DNA of 64,000 nt from Candidatus Poribacteria bacterium. GTDB taxonomy: Bacteria > Poribacteria > WGA-4E > WGA-3G. Below the pieces are notes generated by a model. That model searched no databases. It had not been told where the DNA came from and saw only the letters and a list, made by a program, of their open reading frames with translations. The translations under genes were made by a program, and so were the position numbers. The stretch is taken from contig OZ240248.1 of NCBI GenBank assembly GCA_965198235.1, positions 672,001 through 736,000 on the forward strand, in the 5' to 3' direction. This document shows positions 56,301 to 64,000 of the stretch, one piece after another. The stretch's first letter is position 1. Each line of letters begins with the position of its first letter.

Positions 56301-57662
56301 TTGAAAATTCTTCTATTATCGATCTTTTTAATCGGTGCGAGTAGCACAGAACAGATAGCTGTGTTAAGTTCACTTGTGATGGCAGTTCTTGTCTGCCTCG
56401 TCCTATCAGCTTTTTACTCTGGTTCGGAAACAGCACTTGTCTCCGTGAACAAACTCCGAATTAATCAACTCGTTGAATCCGAGAATGCCAGAGCGAGCAT
56501 CGTTTATCGTTTAGTAGAATCGCCCCAGAGAATGCTCGCACTTACACTGGTCGGGACGAATCTTGCAAATGTGCTTATTGCACAACTCGGTGAAGGGCTT
56601 GTTGCCCGAGGACTCCCGAACCTTGCAGTAAGTCTACAGGGACTCATTGCAACGGTTGGTATAACCACTCTACTCCTTATCTTTGGAGAAATTTTACCGA
56701 AAACTATCTTTCGTGTCAAGGCAGATACCTTGGCACTCCGCTACGCCTATCTCTTACGCCTTTCTGAAGTGGTTTTAGCTCCTCTTATTTACCTTGTGCA
56801 AACTTTGACACAGTTTATCATCAAACTCATAGATAGAGGGGCAAGCACACCGAGTCCTGATGCGCAGCGTGAAGAGTTACGACTTCTCGCAACAATGGGG
56901 GAACGTTCCGGCAACCTGCACACCGACCAGCGGCGTATGATTCATAGTCTGCTCAATCTACAAAACCGGACGGTTGCACAGGTCATGGTGCCGCTTGTCG
57001 ACATCGTTGCGATTGAGAAAAATACAAAATGCGAAGATTTTTTGCAAATCGCTGCTGACTCTGGCTTTTCAAGGATTCCGGTCTACGAAGAACAAATCTA
57101 TAATATCGTTGGGATTGTTAACCTCCTGGATGTTATTTATAATGACGTTGAATCAGAGGCGAATTCAAATCCTCGCGAAAAATCAGATACCCTGCCTAAC
57201 ACGATTGAACCTTTCATCCGAACAGCGTTGCACGTACCTGAATCTAAAAACATTAATGCTCTTCTCAAAGAGATCCAGCATACCCGGCATACAATGGTAT
57301 TTGCCGTTGATGAATATGGCGGCACCGTTGGTCTTGTCACGATCGAAGACCTTGTCGAAGAAATCGTCGGCGAATTTGCCGATGAACGCGATGCCCCCGA
57401 ATTTATCCGTTTGATTACGCCTCAGATCCTTGAATGTGATGCAAGAACTGAAGTAGATTTGCTTGAAGAACACTATGGACTCGCAATCCCCGAAGGTGAT
57501 TATGAGACGGTTGCTGGCTATATTCTGGATCGGACCGGCACTATTCCAGAAATTGGCACCGAACTCGACTTGGGTGATTCTATCATCACAGTTATAGATG
57601 CTGACGCACGTGCTATCCGCAAGATTCGCATTCGGCGACGACTCGGACGTTTTACCGCTTAG
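56301..57662 (+). CDS. Second CNNM/CBS/CorC protein
   Basis: FYSGSETAL, FGEILPK, FSRIPVY, DEYGG and YETVAG motifs; start uncertain. Confidence 0.9.
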   Translation: MKILLLSIFLIGASSTEQIAVLSSLVMAVLVCLVLSAFYSGSETALVSVNKLRINQLVESENARASIVYRLVESPQRMLALTLVGTNLANVLIAQLGEGLVARGLPNLAVSLQGLIATVGITTLLLIFGEILPKTIFRVKADTLALRYAYLLRLSEVVLAPLIYLVQTLTQFIIKLIDRGASTPSPDAQREELRLLATMGERSGNLHTDQRRMIHSLLNLQNRTVAQVMVPLVDIVAIEKNTKCEDFLQIAADSGFSRIPVYEEQIYNIVGIVNLLDVIYNDVESEANSNPREKSDTLPNTIEPFIRTALHVPESKNINALLKEIQHTRHTMVFAVDEYGGTVGLVTIEDLVEEIVGEFADERDAPEFIRLITPQILECDARTEVDLLEEHYGLAIPEGDYETVAGYILDRTGTIPEIGTELDLGDSIITVIDADARAIRKIRIRRRLGRFTA

Positions 57663-58423
57663 AGAATTCCGAGCGGCGGCATTACAACAATTTCTTCAGT
57701 CACCATACCGGGCGGTTGCTGACAAACGGAGACAACCGTACCAGCAACATGTTCTGGTGTTAACATCTGTTCAAAGTCCGGGTGTTCCGGCACATCGTCC
57801 CAAAATGGGGTGTGCACCGACCCAGGTAACACAGCGGTAACTCGAATATTCTGTTGTCGGACTTCACTGGCTAAAACCTTTGTCAGTGCTAACGCACCTG
57901 CTTTCGCTGCACAATACGCGCTTGAAGCTTCAAATGCGACTTTCGCGGCGATTGAAAGTACATTAATAATCTGTCCACTGCCCCGTTCCAACATGGACGG
58001 AAGCACATACTTTGCGCAGAGATAAACAGCCTTTAAATTGGAATTGAGTACCGCATCCCAATCGTCAGGATCGAAATCAACGACTGGTCCGAAATAACCG
58101 ATTCCTGCATTGTTGATTAGAATATCCACATGTTGGTAAACATCTAATGTACGCTGGATGAGTTGTTTCACAGCATCGGCGTTGGTAACGTCTGTTGGAA
58201 CAACGAGTATGGAATCGGGGTTAGAAACCCCTCCTACTTTAAGCTCCACTGCGACCTGTTCAAGTGTCTCACGTGTTCGCGCAGCGAGCACCACTTTCGC
58301 GCCCGCTGTGGCAAAAGCGAAAGCGATTGCTTTACCAATCCCTTTTGATGCTCCAGTAATTACCGTGACTTTTCCGTCAAGTCTTCCTATTTCTGACACA
58401 TTGGGATGGTCGGGAGAAACCAT
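57659..58423 (-). CDS. SDR oxidoreductase, putative sepiapterin reductase
   Basis: TGASKGIG, NNAG, SAYCAAK and PGSVHTPFW motifs; GGAGG SD; follows folE and PTPS. Confidence 0.8.
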   Translation of the reverse strand: MVSPDHPNVSEIGRLDGKVTVITGASKGIGKAIAFAFATAGAKVVLAARTRETLEQVAVELKVGGVSNPDSILVVPTDVTNADAVKQLIQRTLDVYQHVDILINNAGIGYFGPVVDFDPDDWDAVLNSNLKAVYLCAKYVLPSMLERGSGQIINVLSIAAKVAFEASSAYCAAKAGALALTKVLASEVRQQNIRVTAVLPGSVHTPFWDDVPEHPDFEQMLTPEHVAGTVVSVCQQPPGMVTEEIVVMPPLGIL

Positions 58424-58700
58424 ATCCACCTCCGCATTTTTTAAACTATGAGTCCCTGGGCATCGCTCCAAATGTAAAGCAAAGACAAATTATGCCATTT
58501 AAGGCATAATTTCGTTCCACGATGGTATCTGGTGGTTTTCAACGCGACTGAGGATCTGTACGATTCTTAACCCACACGCCCCGATTTTAGGTGTGGTTGC
58601 GAAGACCACCGTTTGTAAAAGGCAGTACTTTAAAGACACATTGTCAAAGGTGTTAGCGATCCACCAGTAGGAGAAGGATGCGTAAGCCCTGAGAAATATA

Positions 58701-59300
58701 TTAGGATATTTGAATGCACCTCAAAAACTCAGCGCGCGTTGAACTATCCTCACGGAATGTCCCCCGCATGACATTCGTTGTCATTTTCGGTGCTTGCTTT
58801 TCGACACCGCGTGCCATCATACACAAGTGTTGCCCCTCCATTACTACCGCGACACCTCGCGGGTCGAGTGCGGTTTCGAGTGATTCGGCAATCTCACGCG
58901 TGAGACGTTCCTGAACTTGCAACCGACGGGAAAACATATCCACGATCCGTGGGATTTTACTCAAGCCAATAATTCGGTTCCGTGGGAGATACCCAACGTG
59001 ACATTTGCCCCAAAAGGGGAGAATATGGTGTTCACAGAGACTGTAAAATTCAATTTCTTTCACAATCACCATTTCGTCATAATCTTCGTCAAAGATGGCT
59101 CCATTCAGAATTTCATCAACGCTTTGATGGTAGCCCTTTGTCAAAAATTCCATTGCTTTCGCGGCACGATATGGTGTTTTCACTAAGCCCTGACGACTCG
59201 GATCCTCGCCCAAACTTTCAAGAATTTTGGTAAAGAGTCCTTCTAACTCTGGGGTAACATTAGCCTGATTAAACTCCATTATGTTAAAATGTGTCTCCAA
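58701..59300 (-). CDS. folE: GTP cyclohydrolase I
   Basis: SLCEHH, GLSK, RLQVQERLT and HLCMMARG motifs. Confidence 0.97.
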   Translation of the reverse strand: METHFNIMEFNQANVTPELEGLFTKILESLGEDPSRQGLVKTPYRAAKAMEFLTKGYHQSVDEILNGAIFDEDYDEMVIVKEIEFYSLCEHHILPFWGKCHVGYLPRNRIIGLSKIPRIVDMFSRRLQVQERLTREIAESLETALDPRGVAVVMEGQHLCMMARGVEKQAPKMTTNVMRGTFREDSSTRAEFLRCIQIS

Positions 59301-59341
59301 TGGGCTGTATTTTCAATGTGCTTACTGGGTAGAAAGATGGA

Positions 59342-60169
59342 TTACTCCCCGTAATAGTCGAAATGGTTTTTGGGTGTCTCTCGCAAGCGGAGGCGATGTA
59401 AAACCACTGGGCACAGATTCGGTTCTAATACGTTCCAAAGCACTTTGACAAAGTTCTCCGAGGTTGGATTGAGGATATCAAACTCGGGCGTGTCGAGATT
59501 CAAATGTTTGTAATCAAAACGCGCATAGACCTGTTTTTGAATAACTTCGTCAAGGTGACTCAGCCCCGCAACCAACCCTGTTCTTGCATCTACGTCGCCC
59601 TTTACAGTAACTTCGAGAACATAGTTATGCCCATGCCCAGCTGGATTATTGCACTTTCCGAATATCTCTCGGTTTTCTTCGTCACTGAGCGCGTGGCTGT
59701 GTAAGCGGTGGGCTGCGCTAAACTCGTAGACTTTAGTAAGATAAACCATCGGTCCTTCCCCATAATAGTCTGCAAAATTTGTTCCACTTTCGTAGAGTCG
59801 CACCCTGTGCAACATCCCTCCTGGCAGAGAAGGCACAAGCCGTTGCCAAATCTCCATAGTAATGTTTTCGCACGTCGGTTGTAGGTGCGGGTTCTTTGCG
59901 AAAATGGGGTGTTGACGGTTTAGATGTTTGTGATCGTAATTGGCGAGTACTTCCCTCTTCAACAATGCGTCCAAGGTCACCAAATTGATTACCATACCGT
60001 CATCCACATCCACACTCCCTTTCACCATTACTTCAAGCACGTAGTTATGCCCGTGGCTATTTGGATTCGCGGCGGCACCGAACAACTCAAAGTTCTCTGC
60101 ATCGCTCAATTCAGGGATACGATTGTAATGTGATGCTTCAAACGCCGTCTGCCGGGTTAAGTAGTACAT
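59342..60169 (-). CDS. Tandem-domain 6-pyruvoyl-tetrahydropterin synthase (PTPS-II type)
   Basis: Two T-fold domains; second has CNNPAGHGHNY (CX5HGH), first has ANPNSHGHNY without the Cys. Confidence 0.9.
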   Translation of the reverse strand: MYYLTRQTAFEASHYNRIPELSDAENFELFGAAANPNSHGHNYVLEVMVKGSVDVDDGMVINLVTLDALLKREVLANYDHKHLNRQHPIFAKNPHLQPTCENITMEIWQRLVPSLPGGMLHRVRLYESGTNFADYYGEGPMVYLTKVYEFSAAHRLHSHALSDEENREIFGKCNNPAGHGHNYVLEVTVKGDVDARTGLVAGLSHLDEVIQKQVYARFDYKHLNLDTPEFDILNPTSENFVKVLWNVLEPNLCPVVLHRLRLRETPKNHFDYYGE

Positions 60170-60203
60170 CGGTTTCGTGCTGTTACGTTGTGTGCCTAAG
60201 GAT

Positions 60204-60497
60204 CTAAGCAGTGTGCCGCGGAGGTACTACGAGTTCGTTGTCGATTGACTCATATTGAACCGCCATAAGCCATTCGCCTGTCCCGCGTATCTGGACGTTG
60301 CACTTTTTCAACCACTCGATTAAGGTGACACGATTACGTGCTTCCCATTCGCAAACCATTCGTCCTGACAGCGTATCGCACAAGACTCGGATGCTGCTCA
60401 CATCGGCGTTTTCTGCTTCTTTGAAACGCTTCAGTAATCGCGTAACGTCTTGGCGTGTCATGCAGGCAATAGCATGGGTGGAAACAAATTTTGGCAT
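60204..60497 (-). CDS. DUF4242-like small protein
   Basis: MPKFVSTH...GRMVCEWEA pattern. Confidence 0.55.
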   Translation of the reverse strand: MPKFVSTHAIACMTRQDVTRLLKRFKEAENADVSSIRVLCDTLSGRMVCEWEARNRVTLIEWLKKCNVQIRGTGEWLMAVQYESIDNELVVPPRHTA

Positions 60498-60618
60498 ATT
60501 TTTTAATAGCCATCAGCCGTCGGCTTTCAGCCATTAGAGGGTGAGGTTACAAACCTCGCGAGCGGCGGTTACTGATAGTTCTCACTGCGAAGCAAGCCGA
60601 AGGCTGACAGCCATTCCT

Positions 60619-61467
60619 CTAGTCGCGGGCAATGGGTGCTCCGACGAGATTACCCCATTCCGTCCAACTGCCATCATAGTTGCGGACCTTTTCATATCCG
60701 AGCAGATACTTCAACACAAACCATGTGTGCGATGAACGTTCACCAATACGGCAATAAGCAATTGTTTCCTTATTCTCATCAACGCCTTCACCGCCGTAGA
60801 TGGCTTGCAGCTCGTCGTGAGACTTAAAGGTACCGTCTTCAGCCACAGCTGTCGCCCAGGGGATGTTCGCTGCGCCGGGGATATGTCCACCGCGTTGCGC
60901 GGTTTCGTTCATGCCGGGCGGTGCGATAATTTCGCCGGAGAATTCGGCAGGCGAACGGACATCTACAAGGTTAATAACGCCTTGTTCAAGCGTGGGTCGG
61001 ATATTATCCTGTGTGGCGCGAACGTTGTCATCAGGGAATTTCGCCTGATATCCTGTGCTCGAATGATCTGGAACGTCAGTGACAAGTTCTCTACCTTCAT
61101 CGAGCCATTTTTGACGACCCCCGTTCATCACCTTCAACAGACTTTCATCGTGTCCGTAATAGCGGAATTGCCACAAAGCATACGTTGCGAACCAGTTATT
61201 GTTATCTCCATAAAAAATAACAGTGGTATCGGTGGCGATACCGCTGTCATTGCAGAGCACCTCGAACTGTTCTTTCGTGAGGATATCGCGTCGAACCTGA
61301 TCGCACAATTGTGTCTGCCAATTGAGTCCCACTGCACCAGCGATATGTCCTTCAGCATATGCTGAAGTATCAACATCAACCTCAAGCAGTCGGATGCCAG
61401 CATCACCACCATGCTCAGCGACCCATTCCGTACTTACCAAAACATCAGAATTTGCGTAATCAGCCAT
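60619..61467 (-). CDS. Two-domain rhodanese/sulfurtransferase (SseA/CysA-like)
   Basis: LVSTEWV, GHIAGA, GHIPGA, YCRIGERSS and NYDGSWTEW motifs. Confidence 0.93.
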   Translation of the reverse strand: MADYANSDVLVSTEWVAEHGGDAGIRLLEVDVDTSAYAEGHIAGAVGLNWQTQLCDQVRRDILTKEQFEVLCNDSGIATDTTVIFYGDNNNWFATYALWQFRYYGHDESLLKVMNGGRQKWLDEGRELVTDVPDHSSTGYQAKFPDDNVRATQDNIRPTLEQGVINLVDVRSPAEFSGEIIAPPGMNETAQRGGHIPGAANIPWATAVAEDGTFKSHDELQAIYGGEGVDENKETIAYCRIGERSSHTWFVLKYLLGYEKVRNYDGSWTEWGNLVGAPIARD

Positions 61468-61574
61468 CAAAATCTTCAGGCTAGGGACTCCATGCTTTAG
61501 CATGGAGAGAAAAGCCTGTCTCCTAAAAGTTGAAAGTTAGTTAATTGTAAAGCTATATCCTCTTGTTGTATCTT

Positions 61575-62594
61575 TTAAGATATAGCGATAGGTTTATATC
61601 TAAAATTAAGTCTTCGTAATATCTTACAATCCTTAACTTTAGCATTTCGTGTCAAGCGTTTACCACCTTCTATAGGTTGTAAACACAAATAAGTGTTCAT
61701 ATACCCGCATACAACTGCTAAACCATGTTTGACATGTTTCACCAGTGTACCTTTGCTAAGTCCAAGACACTTCGTGCCGCCATATCTCGGTCTTTTACCA
61801 CCTTTCTGTGGTAGTTGCTTATGTAGACCCCGTCTTTCTATAGGTATAGGCAATATACAAAATACGCTGATGTTGTCTACTATTGCATTGCCGCCGACCA
61901 TATGATACGCTAAGCACCAACTGTCCACACAATGCACATCAAAAGACTCCGCAGTCTTGTTAGAATTCTTTTTTAGTCCGAGTTCATCACGAATCTCTTT
62001 AGTCTCGTGGCCTCTTCGTGTGGAGAGTTGCCATCTTTTTCGGACATTTTTGTAGAACCACTCTTTGCCCACTTCAAGCGGACTGAACGACTGATTTCAT
62101 TTCCGCTGACACTGCTTCGTACGTGCCTTAATATCTTCTACACATACGTATGTGACCGGAAACATCTTACCAAGCCAGTCAAGAATGCGTAGTTTCCAGT
62201 CCCACCTTGCACGTGTACCAGCGGGTAGCCTCTGTTTATTCACAAGTTTGTTCATGCGATTTTTGCGATTAGGACACTTTCTGGAACGCCTCCCTCTACG
62301 CAACTCTCGCCTCTTTGCAACCTTCTTACCAACTTTGTTATGTGCATCAGCCTGCACATTCAAGTATGTATGTGCTTCGGACTTCACCGTAAAGCCTTCC
62401 TTCTTACTACCAGGATCTACACCTACTGCTATTTCCTGGTCACAGCGTTTTGAAGGTTCTACGTTCAGCCTCACACAGAATACCCCATTCTTCCAAAAGG
62501 GGGTTGCCTTCCCTGATTTAATCCACTTCGCTGCCCTGGAAGGCCGGGTTGGCATCAATGGATTTTGATTCTTATCAACAACTGGGACAAACAT
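61575..62594 (-). pseudogene. isrB: IsrB (PLMP + RuvC, no HNH) RNA-guided nickase with an in-frame TGA
   Basis: VVDKNQNPLMP, GVDPG, Arg-rich bridge helix, VEDI and HCVDSW motifs. The two ORF-track fragments are in the same frame, separated by TGA at 62097-62099; about 339 codons in total. Confidence 0.88.
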
Positions 62595-62609
62595 CGTTTG
62601 TAACTTCCT

Positions 62610-62801
62610 TGCGGATATATACTTCCCCATCGAGATCACGAAATCAGAGAGGAATTAGACTTGGGGAGCATCCAAAACATCTGACTGCGTGCCACCACAA
62701 GACTTCGCGATATTTTACTCTATTCAGCATCTTACGTTGCAGGGTCCCGACTTGGCTGTCGATATTCTACAATCTCCACGCTTTAGCGTGGAGTTACTGA
62801 A
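62610..62801 (-). ncRNA. omegaRNA scaffold of the IsrB system
   Basis: Starts TTCAGTAAC plus a hairpin; contains GGATGCTCCCCAAGTCT..CTCT and CGATGGGGAA, motifs typical of IscB/IsrB omegaRNAs; lies directly 5' of isrB. Confidence 0.75.
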
Positions 62802-62871
62802 ATTGTATCCCTGTTAAGACCTATTCCTATAGGCATACAAAGTGTGCCCTAAAAGGACGATTCTTATTTAT

Positions 62872-62900
62872 ATTATACATATCTAACCCCGATTTGTCAA
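62872..62900 (-). promoter_or_regulatory. Perfect-consensus sigma70 promoter reading into guide, omegaRNA, isrB and the pterin operon
   Basis: TTGACA-N17-TATAAT. Confidence 0.85.
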
Positions 62901-63039
62901 ATAGAAATGCGATTTTGCCACCATTTCGTCTATTTTTGCGGAATTTACCAAGTATTCCCGACAAAAATGGTTTATAGTAAAATCCAAAAATATCTCTCAC
63001 TGCAAGGCAACTTTACGAAACAACATCCCCTCCCATCGC

Positions 63040-63143
63040 TGGCGAGGTTTCCTGCAGAAATCCGCAGAAATACCCAAGTAATACGCAGAAACACCCTATC
63101 AAAAACCCCTATCAAAAACACCCCTATCAAAAACCCCTCGCCA
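63040..63143. repeat. REP-like palindrome enclosing short tandem repeats
   Basis: TGGCGAGG...CCTCGCCA encloses GCAGAAA x3 and CCCTATCAAAAAC x3. Confidence 0.65.
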
Positions 63144-63361
63144 CCTATAGTGTATAGGTAATTGCGGGCTTTACTATAAGTCAGGGATACACCCAGTTAC
63201 TGGATCGAGAATCTTCCAACAAAACTCAAGATTGATAAGGTAAAATTAGAAGGCAAAAGAGGAGGATAGAAGCAATGGTTTCAGGAAAAAACAAGCCACG
63301 CCAAAAGATTGACGCGGCTTATTGTTTATAGGTAGTTATGTTCTGTTCTTAATTAGAATTC

Positions 63362-64000
63362 TTACAGCCGACTGGCAGCACTCGGTGCCTTTTTCGGGGC
63401 ACTATCTATCTCTCCATCGGCGAGGGCACTTGCAGGAATATAGTTGCTGTAATCCGAGATATTTCCGTGTGTCACCGCGTAGACGACGATGTTAACGAGT
63501 TGTCGTGCAGCAGCTGGAGCGAATTCATCTAAAATTCTATTCCGATCCTGATAGTGACCGAAGAAAGGTTTCTGAACGGCACCATCCATCACATGTATCA
63601 TTGCTTCTGTATCAACAAGAACAGCCAACCGATCATCAATAAAAACGCCTTGCAACTGACGATAGGGACCGTGATGGAGAATGGTAGACCCAATTTTCCG
63701 GACGGGGAAACGGAGGGGTCCGTTCAGCTCATAGAAAGCGTTGTAAATCTCATGATCTTGAGGGATAGTCGTGAGATGATATTCAGGAAGAATTTGCCGC
63801 AAGACGCGCAGCGCAGGCTGCATTGCCGCTTCCGTGTTTCCGTGTGTCGGCATATAGATAAACCCGCCGCGGTTGATGATATATTCGCGGATTCGCTGCG
63901 CCTCCCGGTCGGTATAACCGAAGGAAGGGCGATCCCCGCTTACATTCCAGATATTGCCACCTAACAGTCCGTTCTGGAGTTGCACTGAGGATTTGGGAAC
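63362..64000 (-). CDS. DUF4159-like protein, C-terminal part (5' end outside the window)
   Basis: REYI..GGF.Y, LP.Y.L..IPQDHEIY..FY, L.G.FIDDRLAV and NIVVYA.TH motifs. Confidence 0.7.
   Translation of the reverse strand, partial: VPKSSVQLQNGLLGGNIWNVSGDRPSFGYTDREAQRIREYIINRGGFIYMPTHGNTEAAMQPALRVLRQILPEYHLTTIPQDHEIYNAFYELNGPLRFPVRKIGSTILHHGPYRQLQGVFIDDRLAVLVDTEAMIHVMDGAVQKPFFGHYQDRNRILDEFAPAAARQLVNIVVYAVTHGNISDYSNYIPASALADGEIDSAPKKAPSAASRL

Follow-up and report, generated by a model that had tools for sequence, protein, structure and literature searches.

The ISC1 elements have been known since 2016 to insert at N|ATGA (Kapitonov 2016, PMC4810608). As described there, ISC1-1_MA of Microcystis aeruginosa is a non-autonomous element of about 1.3 kb with a single RuvC-only Cas9 homologue (IscB1, that is, IsrB), and elements of this type have subterminal hairpins like those of IS605 elements in the same genome, make no target-site duplication, lie 5' of a 4-bp target and use a Y1 transposase in trans. 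The main text of that paper, its supplements lying outside this statement, makes no mention of start codons. Here we describe an element with these features, mobilisation by a Y1 transposase in trans being predicted, in a stretch of 64,000 nt from a Candidatus Poribacteria bacterium (contig OZ240248.1, positions 672,001 to 736,000; hereafter the window). The window element differs in its target, which is ATGG in its subfamily as against ATGA, and it stands flush against the ATG of a rhodanese gene that has lost its native Shine-Dalgarno (SD) sequence.

The encoded protein compares well with DtIsrB of Desulfovirgula thermocuniculi (structure 8DMB; PMC9581776), with which it shares full-length homology, the PLMP motif, the RRxRR bridge helix and the RuvC motifs GVDPG, VED and HCVD. 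DtIsrB has its guide at the 5' end of the omegaRNA and an NTG-type target-adjacent motif (TAM) on the 3' side, the same arrangement as is proposed for the window element; its omegaRNA measures 284 nt, against a window scaffold of about 207 nt upstream of the open reading frame (ORF). Further, the "peel-and-paste" IscB elements (Meers 2023 preprint, 10.1101/2023.03.14.532601) have in common with the window element an omegaRNA whose limit is the transposon right end (RE) and co-orientation with the upstream host gene. In the TnpA nomenclature of that preprint the isrB-5' end is the RE and the isrB-3' end the left end (LE). The IscB nuclease is thought to re-cut the excision joint, after which recombination restores the element, whereas IsrB only nicks. 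Neither start-codon docking nor loss of the host SD is described in the available sections of the preprint.

The target motif and the kind of element are already known, and the element itself is unremarkable, a further IsrB/omegaRNA transposon from a phylum, Poribacteria, in which such elements abound. What may be new is the docking pattern and, as a concrete answer to test, the geometry of an AGGAG box, a hairpin and a short tail at the docking end; the literature searched, with supplements and most subscription journals outside it, held no paper on either. Of the copies surveyed in these sponge bacteria, over half are placed precisely at a host start codon, with the host SD pushed 1.3 kb away or, in the window, deleted. 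The affected genes include dnaN, rpsR and uvrD. It is a testable question how such a gene escapes silencing, and the guides of natural OMEGA systems would often be ribosome-binding sites (RBSs).

The rhodanese junction, its empty site and the target

Similarity between the window element and the other copies in its genome begins exactly at 62801 and stops at 61463-61466. The element reads ...GAAGATTTTG up to 61468, and ATGGCTGAT, the rhodanese start, follows at 61467. Both junctions are spanned by short-read contigs (run X1, records 4 and 7; X4, record 20; X7, records 27 and 31; X18, records 9 and 15). The upper hairpin of the isrB-3' end, CTCCATGCTAAAGCATGGAG, and the isrB-5' hairpin are one compensatory pair apart (C-G versus T-A), and the hairpin of the isrB-3' end is kept in 8 right ends of the same genome, "right" being used here and below for the isrB-3' side. 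In these points, as in the promoter, the leader, the element start and the five-gene operon, the sequence and the Pfam assignments agree with the anatomy of the original prediction (Table 1).

Rhodanese orthologues, 81-94% identical and all starting from the same ATG, are present in 28 relatives. A pattern search found a GGAG-type SD 7-12 nt upstream of the ATG in 27 of the 28, L041 being missed by the pattern. Among the relative loci compared, the promoter also lies upstream of the rhodanese gene in element-free relatives (e.g. L022 and L025) and hence belongs to the host, as had been assumed. In about eight relatives at the genus level the sequence stays collinear with that of the window from the promoter through the leader as far as ...GGAT(A/G)CAAT; between this point and the ATG come another 19 nt, AAGGAGGCTTAACACAAAA or something very similar, without counterpart in the window. 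A contig of run X7 joins 61467 to 62803 through 20 other letters, which are the relatives' SD segment. The relatives and the metagenomic empty allele consequently hold 19-20 nt more, the native SD AAGGAGG and its spacer, between ...GGATACAAT and the ATG.

It had been predicted that removal of 61468-62801 would restore a normal RBS and the empty allele, with AGGGA as the SD. The prediction fails: given the extra 19-20 nt, no such empty allele exists in the relatives or runs examined. Judged by these alignments the native SD segment is absent from the window and AGGGA is ordinary leader sequence, the relatives' true SD lying in the segment that was deleted. The simplest history would be an insertion flush to the ATG and then loss of the adjacent 19 bp.

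The missing segment bears on what the window ribonucleoprotein (RNP) can recognise. In natural empty alleles the guide match (...GGGATACAAT) is followed by AAGG, GAGG or TAGG, not by NTG. Since the extra 19-20 nt place these letters after the guide match, the RNP of the window copy should not cut such alleles, and it should recognise only the precise excision joint of the window allele. The expectation that it would target the initiation region of natural empty alleles is accordingly not borne out at this locus.

A sister mini-element in the same genome (C1:4757286-4757722, L008/L011) illustrates an insertion that remained clean. It is 437 bp long, has both ends and the omegaRNA scaffold, lacks isrB, and separates the SD of a PhyH-type gene from its ATG, with no bases lost or duplicated. 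The empty sites of 26 relatives read ...GAGGTGGAACAACA|ATG..., and in the window genome (G000) the mini-element is found exactly at the bar, before ATGGCAAC. This comparison defines the ends as TTCAG... and ...GAAGAATTT(N) and the target flank as ATGG. A similarity search gave the flanks of the 8 right ends of the genome as ATGG (4), ATGA (2), ATAT (1) and ATAA (1); the ATAT flank is that of the rpsR end, where ATGG starts 2 nt further on.

In the ends from other genomes, two bases after the end hairpin (3-4) covary with bases 3-4 of the flank: 32 of 40 ATGA ends combine a flank GA with TC, 5 of 5 ATAA ends combine AA with TT, and in the window GG is accompanied by CC. Such covariation would be expected if the transposon end read its target by direct base pairing, reportedly the mechanism in IS608.

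The TAM was predicted to be ATGG. In DtIsrB, Gln326 reads TAM position 4; the wild type cuts TTGA and ATGA but not TTGG and ATGG, and the mutant Q326R cuts TTGA, ATGA, TTGG and ATGG targets (Hirano 2022, PMC9581776). The window IsrB has Arg at the equivalent position (GKRLTRNA aligned to GKRIGQFS) and in this would resemble the engineered Q326R protein, which accepts G at TAM position 4, rather than wild-type DtIsrB. Among 38 ATGA-flanked copies this residue is Gln in 18, Thr in 17, another residue in 3 and Arg in none, and the two other Arg copies with a readable flank carry ATGG (L115, by parser; L165, by eye). The conserved flanks together with the Arg support ATGG as TAM of the window IsrB. 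The target that the transposase chooses and the TAM that the nickase reads seem to shift together, ATGA with Gln or Thr and ATGG with Arg.

In the assembly isrB is interrupted by a TGA at 62099-62097, where the intact paralogues have Trp, reading KKWNQSFSPLEVGK. Every covering contig in 4 of 4 public runs has C in place of T at 62097, giving the codon TGG (Trp), and one of the four runs is otherwise 100% identical to the window throughout the element. We therefore regard the repair of isrB that was advised before a TAM assay as apparently unneeded; isrB is probably intact in the population, the stop being an assembly error or a minor variant.

Table 1. Features of the window element and of the surrounding rhodanese operon. 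Positions are those of the 64,000-nt window; promoter, element and operon are all on the minus strand.
Feature	Position	Strand	Remarks
Host sigma-70-type promoter of the rhodanese/pterin operon	62872..62900	-	TTGACA-N17-TATAAT, 12/12 consensus matches
Remaining host 5' leader	62802..62865	-	About 64 nt, ends ...TTAACAGGGATACAAT; collinear with relatives to ...GGAT(A/G)CAAT; 5' limit estimated from the -10 box
Predicted guide, last 16-20 nt or so of the leader (...CTTAACAGGGATACAAT)		-	Position as would follow from IscB/IsrB architecture
Whole non-autonomous IsrB element (ISC1, IS200/IS605-type)	61468..62801	-	1,334 bp
Element start TTCAGTAAC	62801	-	
Subterminal hairpin, isrB-5' end	62774..62793	-	CTCCACGCTAAAGCGTGGAG; equals the first omegaRNA stem
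omegaRNA scaffold	62595..62801	-	About 207 nt 5' of isrB; may extend into the ORF
isrB	61575..62594	-	339 codons
AGGAG box	61520..61524	-	Directly 5' of the lower stem of the end hairpin; candidate relocated SD
Imperfect end hairpin, isrB-3' end	61477..61518	-	Lower stem CAGGCT/AGCCTG, upper stem 61507-61488; minimum free energy fold
Tail between hairpin and host ATG	61468..61476	-	9 nt, AAGATTTTG; without SD complementarity
ATGG, TnpA target and predicted IsrB TAM	61464..61467	-	Rhodanese start codon and first base of codon 2
Rhodanese gene	60619..61467	-	282 aa, intact, first gene of the operon; Pfam Rhodanese
Downstream operon genes	57659..60497	-	97-aa ORF (without a Pfam family), double 6-pyruvoyl-tetrahydropterin synthase (PTPS), GTP cyclohydrolase I, short-chain dehydrogenase (SDR)

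Identity of the element and its proposed mode of life

The IsrB ORF matches Pfam RRXRR (PF14239, E=1.8e-31, residues 1-162) and DtIsrB 8DMB (E=1.7e-32, residues 1-334), and it is without an HNH-sized insert. In the alignment with 8DMB the motifs NPLMPT, RRELRRGRRSRK, GVDPG, VED and HCVD were found in the window protein; the assignment of catalytic residues among them is our assumption. Upstream of the ORF, an alignment of the scaffold from 38 copies (4 from the window genome and 34 from other genomes) gave 32 consensus pairs in RNAalifold, and 21 of these show compensatory changes, long-range pairs included; in the isrB-5' hairpin 6 of 8 pairs have changes on both sides. The distance from the element end to the isrB ATG is 207 nt in the window; of the 59 loci whose end was recognised, most have 206-214 nt. 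By its covariation the region of about 207 nt behaves as an omegaRNA scaffold, and the proposal of an IsrB/omegaRNA element holds.

Within the genome the element has 18 matches. Among them are four paralogues whose IsrB ORFs, 341-355 aa long, are intact, and a fifth ORF resembling isrB at C1:4954590-4955542; two miniature derivatives have ends only (one also with omegaRNA), and several matches are solo ends. For the Y1 transposase there are 6 PF01797 matches above cut-off in the genome, none of them within the element. Imperfect subterminal hairpins at both ends, the lack of inverted repeats and a fixed adjoining 4-nt target mark the element as a true, if unremarkable, isrB-carrying member of the ISC1 / IS200-IS605 group. 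In the same genome 109 hairpins have a CTAAAG or CTGAAG loop; they fall into several IS200/IS605-type families with distinct end sequences, and their flanks group as |ATG(A/G) and |ATAA.

Taken as a whole, we think it likely that the window holds a trans-mobilised ISC1-type isrB element that inserted at ATGG, obtains its guide by read-through from the host and lost the neighbouring SD later, and that target choice and retention account for the pattern seen in the family. A Y1 transposase encoded elsewhere in the genome would insert the element as a single strand beside a 4-nt target, which would be read by the bases next to the end hairpin and which for the window subfamily is ATGG on the isrB strand. 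Where this ATGG is the rhodanese start codon plus one base, the element would come to lie flush against the ATG. The element interior yielded no promoter of its own and the minus strand of the region no terminator-like site, and we suppose that the element is read through from the host operon promoter. Its omegaRNA would then begin with the host leader as guide (a guide from the 5' flank, as predicted, by analogy with the known architecture of the family) and use ATGG as TAM, read by the Arg that takes the place of Gln326 of DtIsrB. By nicking the joint that precise excision leaves behind, the RNP would fill the role in self-preservation that is known for the family. After insertion, 19 bp of the adjacent host leader, the native SD among them, would have been lost, and translation of the rhodanese must now presumably start from element sequence. 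For the most part, the copies are indeed found in sense orientation directly against start codons or some tens of nt upstream of them; the reason, on this view, is that the target contains ATG and only sense insertions in leaders are kept.

RNA-library contigs of two studies span the junction between element and rhodanese gene, and one spans the junction between leader and element. They are compatible with read-through and, as contigs come without strand or ends, no proof of it; nor can differences in depth between contigs be interpreted. A 215-nt contig of the RNA library X4 has a loose end matching the interior of the mini-element at C1:4757286-4757722, at about 15x the depth of the isrB contig.

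A number of points weigh against this explanation. Neither microhomology nor a second element was found to account for the 19-bp loss. The same-order pairing rule that is said to hold for IS608 fits the ATGG and ATAA ends and not the ATGA ends; we set it aside and kept the empirical two-position covariation. The link between Arg and ATGG comprises 3 copies, perhaps of one clade. The assembly itself shows the stop in isrB, and should the assembly be correct, the copy is dead. All four runs consist of contigs, in which RNA ends, strand and level do not appear, RNA libraries can hold DNA, and the span 62825-62962 is bare of X4 RNA contigs, a gap that allows no interpretation. The 3,913 ORF-based gene calls of the window genome, from which the null model below was built, are crude. 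Finally, the check with omegaRNA/HEARO covariance models that had been asked of the prediction came out negative, a permissive Rfam scan of 60500-64000 giving 0 families at E<=1, HEARO included. As the Rfam HEARO model was built on IscB-type RNAs (Meers 2023 preprint, 10.1101/2023.03.14.532601), the missing match weakens the name HEARO and not the omegaRNA reading.

Start-codon docking in Poribacteria

Of the 14 ATG-type right ends in the window genome, 9 adjoin the start codon of a gene that has a Pfam family. The genes are those for the rhodanese, ribosomal protein S18 (2 nt off), a PhyH-type dioxygenase, a DegT-type aminotransferase, a DHDPS-family enzyme, a PSCyt/PSD protein, a MatE transporter, a Laminin_G_3 protein and a PALP (TrpB-like) enzyme.

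For other genomes we surveyed the best 80 of 335 IsrB relatives in genome contigs, all 80 of them Poribacteria by their record titles. Automatic parsing located the right junction at 67 loci and failed at the other 13, and at least two loci were mis-assigned (L132 and L156, which are ATAA-type). The 67 placed junctions comprise 51 with ATGA or ATGG, 12 with an ATA flank and 4 others; L119 and L120 have a TTGA-like flank with gene starts downstream. For 30 of these 51, an ORF of at least 80 aa, or one running off the locus, starts with the junction ATG, and L133 (PIN-type start) and L165 (glycosyltransferase-like start), which look flush by eye, are excluded from this count. Pfam families were found for 20 of 29 flush ORFs. 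In DnaN, UvrD, ATP sulfurylase, ThiI, a GFO/IDH/MocA oxidoreductase and two Phd/YefM antitoxins the first positions of the profile align to residues 2-7.

A strong SD is present in the 20 nt before the other end of the element in 13 of 22 flush copies, against 2 of 16 non-flush copies and 16% of random 20-mers. By this measure the typical flush copy sits between an SD and its ATG, and the window copy, with its SD apparently since lost, is the exception. The suggestion that start-codon docking could be general is borne out, both by the own-genome ends and by the other Poribacteria, and it is mostly explained by the published target motif N|ATGA (PMC4810608).

Individual loci add to this picture. 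In two genomes (L176, L184) an IsrB element is flush against dnaN (DNA polymerase III beta), with the SD AAGGAG 8 nt before the other element end. In two others (L187, L191) elements of different subfamilies, with distinct end sequences, occupy the start codon of the same Phd/YefM-type antitoxin gene.

To see how far the target alone leads to start codons, we computed for the window genome how many ATGR sites are called starts. The share is 3.1% for all sites and 18% for non-genic ones; on the sense strand upstream of genes it is 38% within 300 nt and 59% within 100 nt. With 30 of 51, the observed rate greatly exceeds the 18% (p about 1e-10) and coincides with the 59%, so target choice and filtering suffice. 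Docking needs only a short target containing ATG and retention in sense-oriented leaders, and not RNA-guided homing. Retention in sense leaders agrees with the missing promoter of the element and with the orientation bias of IscB elements relative to upstream genes (Meers 2023 preprint, 10.1101/2023.03.14.532601, legend of Extended Data Fig. 1c).

The original prediction went further and saw RNA-guided homing to start codons, with an RNP that attacks the initiation region of the empty alleles in the population. The guide-plus-TAM logic of IscB and IsrB is established (Meers 2023 preprint, 10.1101/2023.03.14.532601; Hirano 2022, PMC9581776), and at the clean insertion at C1:4757286 guide and ATGG would indeed match the empty allele. 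The guide is, however, fixed by the element's own flank and cannot pick new start codons, it is the TnpA target ATGR that picks the sites, the natural empty alleles of the window copy have AAGG, GAGG or TAGG after the guide match, and IsrB is a nickase. We consider this version very unlikely.

The agreement with the 59% null, together with the 22 of 37 non-flush junctions that lie within 100 nt upstream of a co-oriented ORF of at least 80 aa, favours a passive origin of the pattern. The ATG would then be in the target by chance, selection would remove genic and untranscribed insertions, and the element end would have no part in translation; we hold this to be quite possible, while stopping short of calling it probable. 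The already reported orientation bias of IscB elements with upstream genes (Meers 2023 preprint, 10.1101/2023.03.14.532601) points the same way. What a passive origin has to say about translation is taken up below.

Translation of the docked genes

Under a passive origin the docked genes would do without an SD, depend on re-initiation after isrB or be translated at a reduced level that the cell tolerates, and to this we give about the same credence, slightly on the doubtful side. In the ATGA subfamilies the loop of the end hairpin contains the TAA stop of isrB, some 30 nt from the host ATG, which would allow coupling. The copy at G000:C1:1584112-1585400 and most ATGA-type loci (e.g. L126 and L143) end isrB in this manner (..SSPH* = ..CCA CAC TAA AG..), and a terminating ribosome would sit about 30 nt before the docked ATG. 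Against this account, it leaves unexplained how essential genes work with their SD 1.3 kb away or deleted.

We compared duplex energies with the anti-SD, taken from the 16S tail located in the genome, to those of random sequence. The last 20 nt of the element were rejected as an SD mimic: their mean duplex energy is -1.58 kcal/mol (n=30, none <=-6), weaker than the -3.08 of random 20-mers. Of 44 ATG-docking ends, however, 26 have (T)AGGAG directly before the outer stem, the preceding 12 nt giving a duplex of <=-6 kcal/mol; the same measure yields 7.8% for random 12-mers and 2 of 15 for the ATAA-docking sister ends (3 of 20 before removal of 5 mis-parsed rows). A passive origin does not explain this enrichment of ATG-docking over ATAA-docking ends. 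In the window, the 12 nt before the outer stem contain AGGAG and give a duplex of -7.3 kcal/mol. The tail after the end hairpin has a median of 8 nt (46 ends) and is 9 nt in the window, and the predicted fold is suggestive in that it would put the SD of the window end at a normal spacing from the ATG.

These observations could mean that the AGGAG box, the transposase-binding hairpin as a bridge and a tail of 6-9 nt evolved to rebuild an RBS before any docked ATG. In the phage T4 gene 38 "split" RBS, a sequence-distant SD is brought near the AUG by a stem-loop; the resemblance would be one of geometry only, the stem here being a transposase-binding hairpin. Besides the box and the tail, such a portable RBS would suit the window, where the native SD is gone and the rhodanese gene is intact. 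It would suit the flush host genes too, which include dnaN (in two genomes), rpsR, uvrD, thiI and a trpB-like gene, and the solo ends that keep the box flush to DegT, DHDPS and S18 genes. On the other hand, the box overlaps C-terminal codons of IsrB (..NYRSG..) in most ATGA subfamilies, so that it could be due to coding constraint or common descent; anti-SD binding by the last 20 nt of the element is weaker than that of random sequence; and the geometry is read from sequence and predicted folds, in a comparison across subfamilies that are not phylogenetically independent. We put a portable RBS forward tentatively, as a possibility we rather doubt. If it were true, insertions at start codons would be nearly harmless even in essential genes, the element would occupy the most reliably transcribed non-coding spot of a gene at little cost, and the host would keep solo ends as RBSs after the rest of the element decays.

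At G000:C1:4862179-4863678 (L012/L048) in the window genome the native SD of a DegT-type gene has given way to about 300 nt of unrecognised sequence together with a solo element end that retains the AGGAGG box, the hairpin and the tail. In four other genomes (L052, L055, L071 and L074) a different short insert ending ...AACCGCAAGGAA(A)ATTAAAAA is flush against the same ATG of the DegT-type gene, and in L074 it has taken the place of the native SD and of the upstream gene's end. It is apparently an unrelated element that also docks on start codons.

Upstream of the promoter in the window, 63032-63150 consists of short tandem repeats with units like GGGGTTTTTGATAGG (minus strand). The X1 contigs there have 20-100x the depth of the neighbouring sequence and many loose ends, and the region resembles a multi-copy repeat or another mobile end.

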